Source: Candidatus Heimdallarchaeota archaeon
GTDB lineage: Archaea > Asgardarchaeota > Heimdallarchaeia > Heimdallarchaeales > Heimdallarchaeaceae
NCBI GenBank assembly: GCA_018238545.1
Contig: JABCTC010000049.1
Coordinates: 1-25,774 of the forward strand
Reading direction: 5' to 3'
Length of the DNA stretch: 25,774 nucleotides
The notes below the pieces were generated by a model that saw only the letters and a list, made by a program, of their open reading frames with translations, did not search any database and was not told the DNA's origin. Shown here one piece after another: positions 16,243-23,535 of this stretch; position 1 is the stretch's first letter, and each line of letters starts with the position of its first letter. Made by a program: the position numbers and the translations under genes.

Positions 16243-17292
16243 ATGAAGATTGCTTTAGTAGGTTTAGGTGCTATCGGAGCTATTGTAGCAGCTGATATAG
16301 CAAAAAGTGGTTATCCAATTTACATTCCTTGCAAATATCAAGAAACTTTGGACATAGTTAAAGAGCGAGGGATTAAGGTTACAGGAGTAAATGGCGAATA
16401 TATCGTAAAAGATAATCTCCATCCAGTTTTGGCTATTGAGGATTTACCTGCTAATCTTGATATTGTTTTTCTTGTTACAAAGTTAAATGATATAGAAGAT
16501 GCTATAAAACGACTGGAAGACAAATTGAGCACAAATTATACTTTAATTACTATGACTAATGGGATGATTGAGGAAAAACTATGTCCTAAACTTGGAAGTG
16601 ACCATTTAATTGGCTGTGTTACAAGTTTTGGTGCAACAAAAACTGGGCATGCTGAATCCGATAAAACATCATCAGGGGAAATGGTTGTTGGAAGGTTAGA
16701 TGGTCGTAAAAGAGAAGTTGATGATAAAATCATTGAAATGTTATCTACTACTGTCCCTACTACTTGGTCCGATAATGTGAGAAATGAAAAATTTTCCAAG
16801 TTACTTATTAACCTATCAGTAGCTTCTTTTGGCGTTATAAGTGGTATGACTCTAGGTGAAATGCTTCAAAGGAGAATGACAAGAATAGCTTTTCTTACTG
16901 TTATGACAGAAGGAGCAAAAGTAGCTGATGTAAAAGGAATTGAACTTCAAAAACTAAACAACTTGAATCTCAATTTCTTAGTTCTAACAAAGCAAGAATT
17001 ACATGGTTTTTCATTCAAGCATTACGTTAAGCAGACCATAATAAAAATAATCAGAAGAAAGTATAAGGATCTAAAATCCTCCAGTCTTCAATCAATTGAA
17101 CGTGGAAAGAAGACCGAGATAGACTTCCTCAATGGATACTTAGTTGTTGAAGGCGAGAAGTTTGGTGTTGAGACTCCCTTGAATAAATATGTTCTAGAAA
17201 CAATTCAATCAATTGAGCAAGGAGAAGAATCACCATCTTTGGAAGGATTAAAGCGTTTAGAAGAGAAAACAAAAGAAATTTGGGGACTCTGA
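16243..17292 (+). CDS. panE: 2-dehydropantoate 2-reductase (ketopantoate reductase)
   Basis: GLGAIG, TNG, KLLIN, SSLQSIERGKKTEIDFLNG, TPLN motifs. Confidence 0.9.
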   Translation: MKIALVGLGAIGAIVAADIAKSGYPIYIPCKYQETLDIVKERGIKVTGVNGEYIVKDNLHPVLAIEDLPANLDIVFLVTKLNDIEDAIKRLEDKLSTNYTLITMTNGMIEEKLCPKLGSDHLIGCVTSFGATKTGHAESDKTSSGEMVVGRLDGRKREVDDKIIEMLSTTVPTTWSDNVRNEKFSKLLINLSVASFGVISGMTLGEMLQRRMTRIAFLTVMTEGAKVADVKGIELQKLNNLNLNFLVLTKQELHGFSFKHYVKQTIIKIIRRKYKDLKSSSLQSIERGKKTEIDFLNGYLVVEGEKFGVETPLNKYVLETIQSIEQGEESPSLEGLKRLEEKTKEIWGL

Positions 17293-17301
17293 AGCTTTTT
17301 T

Positions 17302-18774
17302 TCATATGCATCTATCTACAGCAGAAGAACCCCTTTCATCATATTCTGCTTTTGTTACCCAGAGGTTTCTTTCATTGAAAATTTTTAAAGAAGAAAGAAT
17401 TGATCCTCCAATCCAACTTTTAATTAATCTGTTACTATCAGCTTCAACTTTAATCTCTATATGGTCTGGTATCTTGCTTCTAATATCTGAATAGAATCTT
17501 TCCCTGAAACCTCTATATAATGTTCCTCCACCGATTAGAACAATGTTTGATAAAACAAATTTAAGCAAATCTGAATCACATTTCTGAGCAGATTCTATTA
17601 CAGCATCAGTTAAATCTCCAGGTTCCCCTGTTACACTCAATGGTTCATTTCGGAAAAGTATTTCAGGTGCTTTGAACAAAATTTCATCATATTTTACGAA
17701 ATTGTCGTTGATGATATTTGCAGATCTTATTTGTTTGTCCGTTTTTTGCCAAATCTGTTTTTCTTTCTTAGGATTTTCCGATACATAACACAATTCTTCA
17801 GTAGCATATCTTATGTTTCTATCTATGATATTTCTTTGATTTATAGTCCCTTTAAACTGAGTAATACGTTTGTTAGTATAGTCTTTCATTAATTTAGTAA
17901 CATCATTTGCACCTATATTTCGAATACTAATACTATGACTAATTAGATAACCATCATATATGGGAAGGATTCTAGTTGCAGAAGCACCAATATTTACAAC
18001 TAATCCCGTCACATTTCCATCAGCATAAAGTGACATTAACTCCTTTATTGTGAAATATACTTTGGAGATGCTAAATTGGTCAAATAGAATTCTAGCAATT
18101 TTTCTTCTAATAACCTTTGTTTGTTCATAAACTCCAATATATTCAAGCAATTTTTCCTTACGAAGAATATTTTTTGCATTTTCAGGTAGAGACGAATTGT
18201 TTATCACATCTTTTCTTCCCTTAAGGTAATCAACATAACTGTCCCTCTGAGGCCTCTCAAGAATCATTATTGCTATTTTCGAGGATTCTACTTTCATTTT
18301 CTCAAATATGTGGCTAAAGAAAATCTCAAGATGTTTTAAATCTATTTTTTCTTCTACGTTGTCTGTTTCAAGATAAACGGGAGCTTTTTTTACTATTTTC
18401 TTCTTTGGAATAACATCTAGACTTTGAATAAATGTGTCTCCATCAGTAGAATAAAAAATTACAGATTCAAAAATGTATCTTGGTTGATTTTCACCTGCAA
18501 AACCTACTTTTGTAAAACTTGATCCTAAGTCAATTACTATGGTTGTAGGATTTTTCATTCTTACAACTAATTTGACCTCCTCAATTTGATTCTTAAAAAC
18601 ACCTTGGGATTTCATTAAATCAATATTTTTTAAAAACTTAGAACATAGCTCACAATAATAACCAATTGTGATCCACTTACGTTGTTCAGTCCCCTTCCTT
18701 ATATAGACTCTCTGCATAGCTTTTCCGCAATGTTTTGGTCTAGTTTTTTGCAGTTTTTCGGGCATATCTTCCAC
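17302..18774 (-). CDS. Actin-related protein with N-terminal Zn-ribbon-like extension
   Basis: IVIDLGSSFTKVGFAGENQP, SLYADG..TGLVVNIG, PIYDGY, EELCYV, APEILF, IVLIGGGTLYRG, WIGGSILSSL and WVTKAEYDERG match actin. The N-terminus has KHCG...CELC. Confidence 0.93.
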   Translation of the reverse strand: MEDMPEKLQKTRPKHCGKAMQRVYIRKGTEQRKWITIGYYCELCSKFLKNIDLMKSQGVFKNQIEEVKLVVRMKNPTTIVIDLGSSFTKVGFAGENQPRYIFESVIFYSTDGDTFIQSLDVIPKKKIVKKAPVYLETDNVEEKIDLKHLEIFFSHIFEKMKVESSKIAIMILERPQRDSYVDYLKGRKDVINNSSLPENAKNILRKEKLLEYIGVYEQTKVIRRKIARILFDQFSISKVYFTIKELMSLYADGNVTGLVVNIGASATRILPIYDGYLISHSISIRNIGANDVTKLMKDYTNKRITQFKGTINQRNIIDRNIRYATEELCYVSENPKKEKQIWQKTDKQIRSANIINDNFVKYDEILFKAPEILFRNEPLSVTGEPGDLTDAVIESAQKCDSDLLKFVLSNIVLIGGGTLYRGFRERFYSDIRSKIPDHIEIKVEADSNRLIKSWIGGSILSSLKIFNERNLWVTKAEYDERGSSAVDRCI

Positions 18775-18974: not shown

Positions 18975-20258
18975 TTGATAAGAATGGTTGATATCAAACC
19001 CTTTCGAGCAATAAGGTATACAGAAAAGGCAAGCGATATAGAAAAACTGATTGTCCAACCTTATGATAAAATAGATGAAGAAATGCAAAAATCATATTAT
19101 GCTCAATCAGAGTATAATTACAGCAGATTAACACTTCCAAGTGAAGAGAACCGTTACGAAATATCCCGTCAAAGATTAGAAAAATGGTTAGCAGAAGGGA
19201 TACTAGCAAAAGATGAAGTTCCAGGAATTTATGTTTACTATCAAACGTATGAACTTTTTGGGAAAGAATATATAAGAAAGGGTTTCATAGGAGCCTTAAA
19301 ATTACATCCTTTTGATGATAATATTGTTCTACCTCATGAAAAAACTCACAAAGGACCTAAGATTGATCGTCTGAATATGCTTAGAACAACTAGACACACT
19401 CTTGAAACAGGATTTATTCTATATTCCGATCCAGATAAAAAAACCACTAATCTTTTCGATGAAATTTCTCAAGGCGAACCTTTAATTGATGCTAAAGATG
19501 ATCTTGGTGTTCAAAATAAAATATGGAAAATAACCGATTCAGCACACATAAGAATAGTCCAAGATGTTTTCAAAGAACAGCAATTAGTAATAGCCGATGG
19601 GCACCATAGGTATGAAACAGCTATCACCTATCGTGATATGCGTAGGAAAGATGCTAGTGCTTTAAGAGATTATGATGCTTTTGAATACCGTATGACTTAT
19701 CTTGTTCCTGTAGAAGATGAAGGTTTAATAATTTTGGCGACTCATCGCTGTCTAGCTAAAGAAGCTGTCTCAGAAGAAAAAATGAATGAACTTAAACTGT
19801 TCTTCAATATGAATGAGATAATGAGAACTGAAATTCCTGGATTCTTAGAAGAAAATAGGGATAAACACGCTTTTGTTATGTATCAGGATAGAAGAGCTAT
19901 CTCCATGATTATGAAGGATCCTTCAGCAATTAACAGATATGTTAGCGATGCCAGTGATGACTTCAAGACTCTAGATGTTGTAATCTTGCGAGATATGATT
20001 TTCCATGGTATTATGGAACTTAAAGATCTCCACATAGATGATGATATCTTCTATGAAAGATGGTGGAATGAAGCCATTGAAGAGGTAGATGCTGGAAAAT
20101 ACAAGGTAGCATTTATTCTAAATCCTACTAGTGCAGATGAAGTTCTAAAAGTTGCCAAGAATCATGAAAGAATGCCTCAGAAAGCAACTGATTTTTATCC
20201 AAAGATGATCAGTGGCTTCACAATGCTAAGTTTAGAAGATGGAGAAAAACTTCTCTAA
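18975..20258 (+). CDS. DUF1015 family protein (ParB/Srx-like IADGHHR motif)
   Basis: IKPFRAIRY, PYD, LPHEKT, IADGHHRYETA, THR, MPQKATDFYPK. Likely start is ATG 18984. Confidence 0.9.
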   Translation: MIRMVDIKPFRAIRYTEKASDIEKLIVQPYDKIDEEMQKSYYAQSEYNYSRLTLPSEENRYEISRQRLEKWLAEGILAKDEVPGIYVYYQTYELFGKEYIRKGFIGALKLHPFDDNIVLPHEKTHKGPKIDRLNMLRTTRHTLETGFILYSDPDKKTTNLFDEISQGEPLIDAKDDLGVQNKIWKITDSAHIRIVQDVFKEQQLVIADGHHRYETAITYRDMRRKDASALRDYDAFEYRMTYLVPVEDEGLIILATHRCLAKEAVSEEKMNELKLFFNMNEIMRTEIPGFLEENRDKHAFVMYQDRRAISMIMKDPSAINRYVSDASDDFKTLDVVILRDMIFHGIMELKDLHIDDDIFYERWWNEAIEEVDAGKYKVAFILNPTSADEVLKVAKNHERMPQKATDFYPKMISGFTMLSLEDGEKLL

Positions 20259-20306
20259 TCTTTCATTTCTATTTTTACAACAAATTACTAAAACAATAGA
20301 TAGTTT

Positions 20307-20669
20307 CTAGAAATTTCCTCCACAATTTGTGCAAAACTTTGTTCCAATCGCATTCTTCCCTCCACAGTGTTTACATATAATCTCCCCACTTTCTGTAGAA
20401 GGTGATTGTTCAATTATTGGTTGTTGATATGTATTTAGCACATTATCTTCTGGTAAAGATGTGAATACTTGGGGCTCAGCAAAGGATTGATTTTTCTCTT
20501 TTCTTGATTGTATTATCATAGAAATGAAGATGATAAGACCGATTCCACCTACAACAAGAAGTGCAAACCCATACTCAGGATCGATAAATAGCATAATTAT
20601 ACCAATAACAATTAATCCTGGAGCCGCATAAATAATCCTTCTAACGAAAATTGATTTGCCTTTTAACAT
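20307..20669 (-). CDS. Membrane protein with C-terminal zinc ribbon
   Basis: Two TMs, Q/P/S-rich linker, CKHCG...FCTNCG. Confidence 0.8.
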   Translation of the reverse strand: MLKGKSIFVRRIIYAAPGLIVIGIIMLFIDPEYGFALLVVGGIGLIIFISMIIQSRKEKNQSFAEPQVFTSLPEDNVLNTYQQPIIEQSPSTESGEIICKHCGGKNAIGTKFCTNCGGNF

Positions 20670-20719
20670 ACCTATTTTTGGAAATATTTCTTTTTAAGTT
20701 TTATGTAAAAAGGATGCGC

Positions 20720-20962
20720 TCATCTTCCAAATTCAGCCTCTATAAACCCAATTAGTTCTCCTATAGTATTAAATTCTTTGAGAATGTTTTTTGGTAATTC
20801 AATACTGAATTCATCTTCAATTTTTCTTCTTAGAATCTTCAATCCATTCTTATCTAATCCTAAATCTTTTTCAAAATAAGTGTTGATTGTAAGATCTTTC
20901 TTTTTAATATCTGTCATTCCTGAAATAATTTTTGTAAACCTTCTGTATATACTTGAATACAT
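20720..20962 (-). CDS. Acyl-carrier-protein-fold protein lacking the phosphopantetheinylated Ser
   Basis: Gapless by-eye alignment to ACP (KII...F.KDLGLD...IEDEFSIELP.....FNTIGELI.FI), but D-S-L is D-K-N. Confidence 0.75.
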   Translation of the reverse strand: MYSSIYRRFTKIISGMTDIKKKDLTINTYFEKDLGLDKNGLKILRRKIEDEFSIELPKNILKEFNTIGELIGFIEAEFGR

Positions 20963-20973
20963 TGTTTGTCACT

Positions 20974-21906
20974 TCACATAATTTTGTCAGCAAAAAGCTT
21001 CATTGGATCTTCAATACTCTCAGATTTCCTAATAGCAATAACCATCTTTTGTATGCCTATTTCTTCAACTTTTGTTATCTGATTCTTTAAATCTTCTGTA
21101 AAACCTATGAATGAATTTCGGAGGATGTCTTCTTTTAATGGTTTTTTATCTTCAGGAGCTGCCTTGATTATTCTTTCAACAATTGCATCAAGCTCCTCTT
21201 GAGAATCTACAACATTGATTGTATTGAAGTAAGATATTTCGAAGTTTTCTACATCTCTTTGATATTTTTCTAAGTTTATTTTAATTCTGTTAATTGCATC
21301 TGGTAGATCATCTATTTTTGTATAAGGTAAATTAATCCCATCTGCTTCTCTACAAGCAATATCCATCATCCTCTTGCCATCTGTACCGAGAATTATTTGG
21401 GGATAAGGTTTCTGAATAGGCTTGGGATAATTTCTATTATTCTCAAGCTTCCAGAACTTACCATCATAATCTGTAGAATCTTCCGTAAAGAGCTTCTTGT
21501 AAATTGTAAGAGATTCTTCTAATTCGTCTACTCTTCTCTTTGGTTCTGGAAATGGATAACCATATGCTTTGTACTCTTCCTCATACCATCCTGCACCTAG
21601 CCACAATAGTGCTCTACCTTTAGAAATATTATCGAGCGTGCTAATCATTTTCGCTAGATAAGCTGGGTTTCGGAATGAATTACAAAGTACTATATGACCT
21701 AGCTTTATTTTCTCAGTTTCGATTGCTAATGCACTCATAAGCATTAAGGCTTCGAGATACGGTTCCTTTTTTTCTTGTTTCTCATCAAACCCTATAAAAT
21801 GGTCATTTACATGAGCAGACTCAAAACCTAGTTTTTCTGCTTTAATAGTTAAGTCTCTTATATCATCGTAATTATGAACTGATCTTACGTAATATCCGTA
21901 TCTCAT
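20974..21906 (-). CDS. LLM-class (luciferase-like) oxidoreductase, probably F420-dependent
   Basis: AEKLGFES..V.DHF, FRNPAYLAKMISTLD.IS.GR, LGAGWYEEEY.AYGYPFP, PKPIQKPYP. Confidence 0.9.
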   Translation of the reverse strand: MRYGYYVRSVHNYDDIRDLTIKAEKLGFESAHVNDHFIGFDEKQEKKEPYLEALMLMSALAIETEKIKLGHIVLCNSFRNPAYLAKMISTLDNISKGRALLWLGAGWYEEEYKAYGYPFPEPKRRVDELEESLTIYKKLFTEDSTDYDGKFWKLENNRNYPKPIQKPYPQIILGTDGKRMMDIACREADGINLPYTKIDDLPDAINRIKINLEKYQRDVENFEISYFNTINVVDSQEELDAIVERIIKAAPEDKKPLKEDILRNSFIGFTEDLKNQITKVEEIGIQKMVIAIRKSESIEDPMKLFADKIM

Positions 21907-22095
21907 AATTTGCTAACTAAATCAGTATATTTAACGATTTATATCTAAAAGAAATCAGCAGAATCTGTTCAATCACAATATTATTAAGTTAAAATTCTTC
22001 TATAAGCATGTATCTGTCAAATCTAGACTGAATTTCACCTTGGTTGAGGTTAGACAACTACTAGGCTTGATGATACAAGAACTACAGAAGTTGAA

Positions 22096-22539
22096 GTGAC
22101 AAAATTGAGTGAAGAAAATAAATATATCAAAGTAAGTGAACTCTCTCCAAATATCAGAGATATCAATCTTTTAGCTAAGATTATAGCTCTAGGTGAAACA
22201 AGAGAAGTTACAAATAGAAATACTGGAGAAGAACACAAAGTTATGGATGTTCTCGTTGCAGATGAAACTGCAAAGGTTCTCTATTCAGCATGGAACGAGC
22301 AAATCGATACCATTAAAGAAGGAGAGACTTACCAATTCTTAAACGCAAAAACTATTCTATTCCGTGGTTACATTAGATTATCTTTAGGCAGAAATGGAAC
22401 AATTGAAGAATCTGAAGAAAAGATAGAAGAAACTAATGATGAAGTAGACATGTCAGAAAAAGAACATGAATATGAAAGAAGAGGATATAGGGGCGGCGGT
22501 GGCGGTTCTTATAACAGAAGACCTAGATACGACAGATAA
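22096..22539 (+). CDS. ssb: Single-stranded DNA-binding protein (single OB fold, archaeal SSB/RPA type)
   Basis: KVSEL.P, VADETA, SAWNE; acidic linker followed by an R/G/Y-rich tail. Confidence 0.85.
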   Translation: MTKLSEENKYIKVSELSPNIRDINLLAKIIALGETREVTNRNTGEEHKVMDVLVADETAKVLYSAWNEQIDTIKEGETYQFLNAKTILFRGYIRLSLGRNGTIEESEEKIEETNDEVDMSEKEHEYERRGYRGGGGGSYNRRPRYDR

Positions 22540-22650
22540 AACAATTAGTGAAAGGTTTTTTAGAAAATCTTCCTAACATTTTTTTATTTCTGTGATTTCT
22601 ATTACTCACTAGATTTCTCTTTGCTCAGTATAACAATATTTGAAATATAA

Positions 22651-23535
22651 TCATATGAGTTTAGCAATAAATTGTTTAAGTTCAGTAGCGAAATTTTCAT
22701 GACTTTCCTGAGTTATGCTTTGAATAGATTCCCATTCATCTATTTTATTTGAAATGAAATTTTCAATTTGATTTCTCTCTTCAAAGAGAAACACATAATC
22801 TCTTGGGAAGAAAAGAAGTATCATACAAGGTTGCATTCCTTCAAACCTTGGATCTATCTCATCTTCATCTTTGATTTTACAGATGAAAACTTCTAACAGA
22901 TAGTTAACTTTATCCAAAACTGGAAATGGACCAAAGAAACCTTTTTGGTGTTCATATCCTTGAATGATACCGCTAAAAATGTAAACAGTAAGTTTTGTTA
23001 TTATTTCATCCAGATTTTCAGATTCCTCAAAATCAAGCGGATCAGTTGTTATTATTTCGCCACCAAGATCTCCAAATTTTACTATTGAAACTTGAATTCC
23101 GTTAATAATTTCATCTGAAGATTTTGACGCTAAGACCCTTGATTTATCTTGAAGAGTTACATTCTTTATTATTTCTATGAATTTTTCTAGTTTTCCTTCA
23201 CTATCTGTAATTGGAACGAATTCTATTTCTAGATATAGGTCGTTTCCCTTATCATCTAGTGTCTTCCTGAAAACTTTGTGACCCTTGTTATCTTGCATAC
23301 CAATCGATGCTGGACAATCAGGACATGGTTTTTCTCCTCTATCAGGAAGATAATGCCATCTAGAGTAACATTGACGATGAAGATAAGATCCTATTAAGTC
23401 TTTTACAGTTTCGTTTTCATATAGTATCTCTCGAGTAGGAGTTTGAACTGATATGCCAACTGGGAGCTCATCTAGAACCCATTGAAAGTTTTCTTCGTCC
23501 ATGTCTTTGTTAGAACTATCGGTCATTTTTCTCAA
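22651..23535 (-). CDS. PAS-domain protein (CY...CxxCP type) fused to a putative longin/uDENN-like domain
   Basis: VLDELPVGISV...ILYEN, CYS...PCPDCP, PI.DSEG (PAS/PAC). The C-terminal half has KFGDLGG, GFFGPFPV and DPRF. Confidence 0.7.
   Translation of the reverse strand: MRKMTDSSNKDMDEENFQWVLDELPVGISVQTPTREILYENETVKDLIGSYLHRQCYSRWHYLPDRGEKPCPDCPASIGMQDNKGHKVFRKTLDDKGNDLYLEIEFVPITDSEGKLEKFIEIIKNVTLQDKSRVLASKSSDEIINGIQVSIVKFGDLGGEIITTDPLDFEESENLDEIITKLTVYIFSGIIQGYEHQKGFFGPFPVLDKVNYLLEVFICKIKDEDEIDPRFEGMQPCMILLFFPRDYVFLFEERNQIENFISNKIDEWESIQSITQESHENFATELKQFIAKLI

Follow-up and report, generated by a model that had tools for sequence, protein, structure and literature searches.

The locus described here raises the question of what becomes of an acyl carrier protein (ACP) fold once the serine that carries its phosphopantetheine has been lost, and whether the redox enzyme encoded beside it is its partner. 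The window, the whole stretch of 25,774 nt of Heimdallarchaeal DNA that was analysed, encodes on its minus strand an 80-aa protein (hereafter ACP-like) immediately downstream of a luciferase-like (LLM class) oxidoreductase. An earlier note, made by inspection of the same DNA, had interpreted the small protein as a repurposed carrier fold, possibly serving the LLM enzyme. The features on which the following analysis depends are listed below.

20707–20711, minus strand: run of five T, 9–13 nt past the ACP-like stop codon, a possible archaeal oligo-T terminator as judged by eye
20720–20962, minus strand: gene for the 80-aa serine-less ACP-fold protein, stop codon at 20720–20722 (Pfam, alignment to PDB ACPs, AF2/Foldseek, dN/dS)
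20723–20797, minus strand: residues 56–80 (LPKNIxKEFNTxGExxGxIEAExGR), comprising loop II, helix III, helix IV and the C-terminal tail; near-invariant block by entropy and proposed binding face
20807–20851, minus strand: helix II, residues 38–52, KNGLKILRRKIEDEF; basic here (+2), variable across the family (+3 to −7)
20849–20851, minus strand: Lys38 codon AAG (CTT on the plus strand), at the phosphopantetheine-serine position of the ACP alignment
20963–20973, minus strand: 11-nt spacer from the LLM stop to the ACP-like start, with a Shine-Dalgarno-like GTGA, read from the sequence
20974–21906, minus strand: 310-aa luciferase-like (LLM class) oxidoreductase, probably F420-dependent (Pfam, NCBIfam, PDB relatives)
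21907–21960, minus strand: A/T-rich stretch 5' of the LLM gene with TATA-like boxes, a probable archaeal promoter of the two-gene unit as judged by eye

An ACP fold without its serine

The 80-aa protein scores 29.8 bits against the Pfam PP-binding model (PF00550), above the gathering threshold of 20.8, and phmmer aligns its residues 3–79 without a gap to dozens of solved ACPs, pairing DLGLDKNGL with the DLGADSLDV of ACPs and so placing Lys38 at the serine position. The codon used, AAG, is two base changes away from any serine codon. An AF2 model, for which an alignment of 18 homologues was the input, has a mean pLDDT of 88.2 and four helices (residues 2–16, 38–52, 60–63 and 67–79); its top Foldseek match is the apo-ACP of Thermotoga maritima (6lvu; TM 0.87, rmsd 1.3 Å), the other matches are all ACPs, and an ESM Atlas search returned generic ACP clusters only. 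The gapless alignment, the identity of residue 38 and the codon distance had all been read correctly in the earlier note, and the profile search and structure prediction that it proposed as checks both bear it out: the protein is a genuine ACP fold minus the phosphopantetheine serine.

In fold and ancestry alike, the protein is of the AcpP type. With the bacterial type II FAS proteins of T. maritima (6lvu), A. aeolicus (2ehs) and E. coli (1l0h) it shares the four-helix fold (TM 0.82–0.89, rmsd 1.1–1.5 Å), the length and the gapless alignment, as well as several motifs: DL before helix II, EEF at the end of helix II, the (L/I)P loop, and TxGE/D at helix IV. It differs from AcpP in that the serine of DSL is missing, helix II and the DSLD region are the most variable part, the pocket positions are bulkier, and helices III–IV, like a C-terminal extension of 3–4 residues, are invariant. 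The AcpP-type models of NCBIfam score it at 30–40 bits, far under their cut-offs (38.9 bits against 70.45 for TIGR00517, the equivalog for housekeeping AcpP). Since the attachment serine is absent, acyl carriage on phosphopantetheine should be impossible, and a phosphopantetheine carrier role is ruled out on sequence grounds. Helix II of the window copy, with a net charge of +2, is also not the acidic recognition helix of an ACP. The serine and a conserved acidic helix II are defining features of ACPs, and as the protein fails on both counts it should not be classed as one.

A narrow family under purifying selection

The searches covered about 5.8 billion clustered proteins, GTDB species genomes and JGI metagenomes, and a family profile was run against 1.84 billion representatives. 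Together they recovered one narrow family of about 30 homologues, all within one GTDB family of Heimdallarchaea and all from Heimdallarchaeal MAGs, one of which bears the label Thorarchaeota. Members are 80–81 aa long, save for a few truncated database entries of 65–69 aa, and are labelled in GenBank as "acyl carrier protein" or "hypothetical protein". The most distant of them, the P0014 cluster, end in GMG instead of GR. In a 300-genome sample of the phylum, the family profile matched 19 of the 21 genomes of the window's own genus (g1) and both genomes of a sister genus (g2), and found no member in three further genera of the same family (g3, g4 and g5, two of whose genomes are closed) or in 29 other families; the one exception in that search was a canonical, serine-bearing ACP on a 1.9-kb contig of a single MAG. 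Stand-alone ACPs of the canonical kind are absent from the host lineage. In the explanation that fits best, the ACP-like gene would have arisen as an add-on in the common ancestor of the two genera that have it. A literature search turned up nothing on the family, on ACPs in Asgard archaea or on stand-alone ACPs that lack the serine.

Pairwise dN/dS values between the ACP-like copies lie between 0.04 and 0.14 at dS values of 0.8–1.5, no stop or frameshift occurs in the approximately 30 copies examined, and not one of the homologues, whether from genomes or metagenomes, has serine at the attachment site. Given so many homologues of the same length, their purifying selection and the uniform lack of the serine, the ORF is neither a chance one nor the product of sequencing error, in keeping with the earlier argument that a single base error was unlikely. 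That argument had also named the findings that would speak against it, namely close homologues with serine, relaxed selection, a fold unlike that of ACP, or an unconserved linkage to the LLM gene, and none of these was encountered in full.

Inverted conservation

Conservation within the family was compared with that among 78 canonical, serine-bearing, single-domain ACP representatives. Position 38 is occupied by K (58%), E (26%), D (11%) or N, and with an entropy of 1.53 bits is among the more variable columns. The four D-S-L-D positions (37–40) range from 1.3 to 2.0 bits in the family as against 0–0.9 in canonical ACPs, whereas positions 60–79 average 0.54 bits in the family and 2.04 in canonical ACPs. 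Expressed as family-to-canonical entropy ratios, helix II stands at 0.92 and helices III–IV at 0.26. The pattern is thus inverted relative to a true ACP, with the DSLD region the most variable and helices III–IV and the C-terminal EAExGR tail almost invariant. Residues that are specific to the family and invariant or nearly so are Y2, N27-T28-Y29, P57, K58, E63, F64, N65, G68, E69, G72, E75, E77, G79 and R80; of these, E63, F64, G68, E69, G72, E75 and E77 show no variation across the whole family, its most distant members included.

The net charge of helix II varies from +3 to −7 across the family, and that of the whole protein from +4 to −9. The basic helix II to which the earlier note drew attention is real in the window copy (+2) and in its three closest relatives (+1 to +3), whose whole-protein charges, together with that of the window copy, are +2 to +4; it is confined to this sub-clade and is not a trait of the family. 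Residues equivalent to those lining the acyl pocket are larger than in ACPs (in E. coli numbering, A59 to F/L, I62 to F, A68 to I/L and T39 to L, a sum of about 154 cubic angstroms), which would fit a core that has been filled. Taken as a whole, the conservation data suggest that the classical docking surface on helix II has been freed from constraint and that the functional surface now lies on the face formed by helices III–IV and the C-terminus.

The LLM oxidoreductase and the two-gene unit

The product of the upstream gene matches the TIM-barrel family Bac_luciferase (PF00296) at 156.7 bits, against a threshold of 27.9. Among the NCBIfam models it scores highest against the F420-dependent TIGR03560 (F420_Rv1855c), with 202.4 bits and so under the cut-off of 231.4, and the next five matches are four F420-type subfamilies and the FMN-type SfnG (117 bits); its relatives in the PDB are 3rao, Mer and Fgd1. 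Genes for F420 biosynthesis are encoded in the same genome, all above their cut-offs: CofH (446.8 bits, cut-off 374.1), CofD (336.3, cut-off 257.5) and CofE (235.8, cut-off 180.7). As the best family matches are of F420 type and CofH, CofD and CofE are present, use of F420 by the LLM is plausible, and the enzyme had been assigned to this type in the earlier note as well.

Of the 20 genome loci, 18 have the LLM gene immediately 5' of the ACP-like gene, as do eight of nine informative metagenome loci (26/29 together). Each of the 24 linked loci examined has a spacer of 8–11 nt, with GGTG, GAGG or GTGA at or beside the LLM stop codon, a pattern that reads as the signature of an internal, Shine-Dalgarno-dependent cistron. 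Co-transcription, predicted earlier from the 11 nt separating the two genes in the window, is therefore supported across the family by gene arrangement. Because the relative reading frame of the two genes differs among loci, they must specify separate polypeptides; a search for fused LLM/ACP-like proteins or other long forms found none, which counts as weak evidence only.

The pairing is not obligatory. The LLM orthologues of g3, g4 and g5, at 63–69% identity, have convergent neighbours, and in these three genera the family profile found no ACP-like gene either beside the LLM orthologue or elsewhere in the genomes. Conversely, in a sub-clade of three loci (L015, L016 and L046) the ACP-like gene directly adjoins a divergent SSB gene and there is no LLM gene at the locus; the ACP-like gene is intact there, with a dN/dS of 0.04. 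The genomes of L015 and L016 have only LLM paralogues of 33–39% identity elsewhere, and L046 is a 1-kb metagenome contig. The absence of the LLM gene from this sub-clade probably reflects a single deletion event. A single alignment column, with a conservative difference (L versus I/M), is all that sets partnered LLMs apart from unpartnered ones, and no co-variation was seen between the net charges of LLM and ACP-like proteins (rho −0.19, p 0.53). Linkage between the two genes is therefore strong yet dispensable in both directions. The suggestion of an LLM module holds as far as the linkage goes, and is weakened by the sister-genus LLMs, which have no such partner, and by the sub-clade in which the ACP-like gene persists without the LLM.

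Wider gene order is also retained. The series PAS-like sensor, SSB-like OB-fold protein with an RGG tail, LLM, ACP-like and DUF1015 (18975–23535 in the window; loci L001–L017) is kept down to 50% identity between ACP-like proteins, and in the sister genera the LLM orthologue is found in a different neighbourhood.

A PfaA-like megasynthase in the same genome

Outside the window, contig C73 of the same genome encodes on its minus strand a PfaA-like type I synthase of 3363 aa (L035:6555–16646). The order of its Pfam domains is NMO/FabK-like ER, KS, AT, two ACP domains, KR, PS-DH and a C-terminal PPTase, and it is flanked by genes for a carboxyltransferase and a biotin carboxylase. The synthase is kept in all five genera of the Heimdallarchaeal family, at 57–86% identity over KS-AT. 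All other PP-binding domains of the genome, and its PPTase domain, reside in this protein, so the search for a PPTase that had been proposed as a check was positive only in a qualified sense: the sole ACPS/PPTase match is the C-terminal domain of the synthase. Its two ACP domains (near residues 2190 and 2285) read DLGVDTVKQ and DLGIDTIKQ, with threonine aligned to the attachment serine of PigH and AcpM. As the ACP-like protein has lysine at this position and both megasynthase ACPs have threonine, the genome is without any PP-binding domain that carries the canonical serine. By genus (loci L041–L044 also being considered), the megasynthase ACPs of g1, g2 and g4 have threonine only, and those of g3 have serine, threonine and serine; tandem DLGIDT(V/I)KQ ACPs recur in the PfaA-like database representatives P0016, P0017, P0024, P0027 and P0030, the last being named as bacterial (Calditrichaeota). 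The threonine forms could represent either threonine-linked phosphopantetheine, on which a literature search found nothing, or inactive ACPs. An origin of the ACP-like gene from the megasynthase's own ACP domains was considered and rejected, as these score only 4.7 bits against the family profile.

Proposed role and alternatives

In the ACP-like protein the cofactor site appears to have been lost permanently, and the protein would most likely act through non-covalent binding to another protein. Its binding face is probably made up of loop I (N27-T28-Y29), helix III, helix IV and the C-terminal EAExGR tail, and not of helix II. Translation is expected to proceed from the LLM mRNA by way of the Shine-Dalgarno-like site beside the LLM stop codon, and since both proteins would be made from one message, the LLM is the most likely partner. 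The small protein may then be an accessory subunit of that enzyme, whether as stabiliser, adaptor or substrate-presenting partner, and one that is presumably not required for LLM catalysis as such. The preferred reading is of a lineage-specific, cofactor-less ACP fold whose role is that of an accessory which binds a protein, the LLM being the likeliest one; it is put forward tentatively, and could well prove wrong in the identity of the partner. The general part of the earlier proposal, a repurposed ACP fold, stands, as the fold is kept, the serine is lost and the gene is not decaying; the specific mechanisms attached to it do not.

The most substantial competitor, doubtful but quite possible, is that the ACP-like protein binds something other than the LLM and merely rides on the LLM transcript, candidates being the PfaA-like megasynthase or a protein specific to g1 and g2. 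It is a serious rival, since the ACP-like and LLM genes each persist independently: where the LLM gene has been deleted the ACP-like gene stays under selection, with an A/T-rich upstream region of its own, and the LLM itself shows no adaptation to having a partner. It does not readily account for the 8–11 nt coupling to the LLM gene being held across sequences that are only about 50% identical. The megasynthase in particular is a poor candidate, as it is present in all five genera when the ACP-like protein is found in two, and the latter resembles AcpP-type ACPs and has hardly any match to the ACP domains of the megasynthase (4.7 bits). Alternatively, within the Heimdallarchaeaceae the ACP fold might have been turned into a dedicated cofactor or carrier protein for the F420-dependent LLM, with its cargo bound non-covalently or at a new site (for example, the invariant acidic helix III–IV face or the C-terminal Gly-Arg). 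This is unlikely, although if true it would amount to a phosphopantetheine-independent carrier system in the archaeal lineage closest to eukaryotes. Slightly less probable still is a new type of carrier whose substrate or prosthetic group would be attached away from the classical serine, for instance at an invariant glutamate (E51, E63, E69, E75 or E77) or at the invariant C-terminal Gly-Arg, and presented to the LLM. Carrier proteins that use a C-terminal residue exist, LysW being an example, and the invariant or nearly invariant EAExGR tail and acidic residues, together with the adjoining redox enzyme, are what such a carrier would lead one to expect; but the locus has no conserved gene for a ligase, an ATP-grasp enzyme or a transferase, the GMG terminus of the P0014 cluster lacks the Gly-Arg, and the LLM orthologues of the sister genera work without an ACP-like protein.

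The remaining possibilities have far less to recommend them. A charge-reversed, basic helix II binding anions or nucleic acids, as had been suggested, would suit the window copy and its three closest relatives, with their positive helix II and whole-protein charges, but in other members helix II falls to between −1 and −7 and the whole protein to as low as −9, and the conserved surface is located elsewhere; with acidic to neutral relatives of this kind, such binding is not the conserved function of the family, and we give it very little credence. The other mechanism proposed earlier, a carrier with a covalent adduct on Lys38 in place of serine-linked phosphopantetheine, draws on the fact that lysine sits exactly at the serine position here and in about 60% of the family. 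The other members, however, have E, D or N in this column (1.5 bits) and are under equally strong selection, and a conserved lysine-linked carrier is in consequence very unlikely. Nor is this a bacterial ACP gene that was captured and now decays without a function, as the loss of the defining serine and the narrow taxonomic range might have implied: the low dN/dS at saturating dS, the constant length of 80 aa with reading frames intact throughout, and a nearly invariant C-terminal third exclude decay.

Related systems and wider meaning

Loss of the serine is not in itself rare among proteins that resemble ACPs: of the 96 best single-domain matches to the family profile, about a dozen lack it too. 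In the representatives P0034, P0045 and P0061, and in NCBIfam TIGR04069 ('peptide maturation system acyl carrier-related protein'), the ACP fold is kept and the serine is replaced, often by Glu or Asp. Such look-alikes of phages and bacteria are unrelated in sequence to the present family, which is archaeal, belongs to one Heimdallarchaeal family, is operonic with an LLM gene and has an unconserved helix II, and it is by host, range, LLM operon and helix II that it is distinct. Close phage relatives were searched for, and the best matches were only 24–31% identical. Two bacterial representatives, P0018 and P0099, have a different architecture, with about 300 aa comprising an NHLP-clan, RiPP-leader-like N-terminal domain (NF038399) and two serine-less ACP-like repeats; this is apparently another undescribed re-use of the ACP fold.

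The pairing itself has a parallel in bacterial LLM and carrier pairs of the MupA/Atu3671 type (NCBIfam TIGR04020), where a luciferase-like oxidoreductase likewise adjoins a protein of PP-binding fold. In those systems the carrier is a true holo-ACP or PCP that presents a thioester-bound substrate, whereas the Heimdallarchaeal protein is without the serine, and the window LLM favours the F420-type TIGR03560 (202 bits) over TIGR04020 (42.5 bits). No synthase or ligase genes flank the Heimdallarchaeal pair.

The lipid biochemistry of Heimdallarchaea is central to the debate on the origin of the eukaryotic membrane, and the GenBank label "acyl carrier protein" would wrongly imply that lipid synthesis in these organisms is ACP-dependent; the finding that the protein is not a carrier of this kind corrects the annotation. 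The family also provides a clean cellular case of an ACP fold re-used with a different functional surface, and one that is small, easy to express and has a clear candidate partner.

Other genes of the window

The gene 50 nt downstream of the ACP-like gene (20307–20669, minus strand) encodes a protein of 120 aa, for which two membrane helices are predicted and which has a zinc ribbon at its C-terminus. This protein is present only in the closest relatives of the window (L001–L003), at about 40% identity, and so is fast-evolving. A homologue of ketopantoate reductase (PanE/ApbA; 16243–17292, plus strand), an enzyme of the pantothenate pathway, lies 3.4 kb from the ACP-like gene, probably by coincidence. 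Between these two genes is that of an actin-family protein of 490 aa (17302–18774, minus strand), which matches Pfam Actin at 204 bits over residues 77–488 and has an N-terminal extension of about 75 residues with a CxxC...CxxC, zinc-ribbon-like arrangement; it looks like an Asgard homologue of actin in which the N-terminal domain is unusual.
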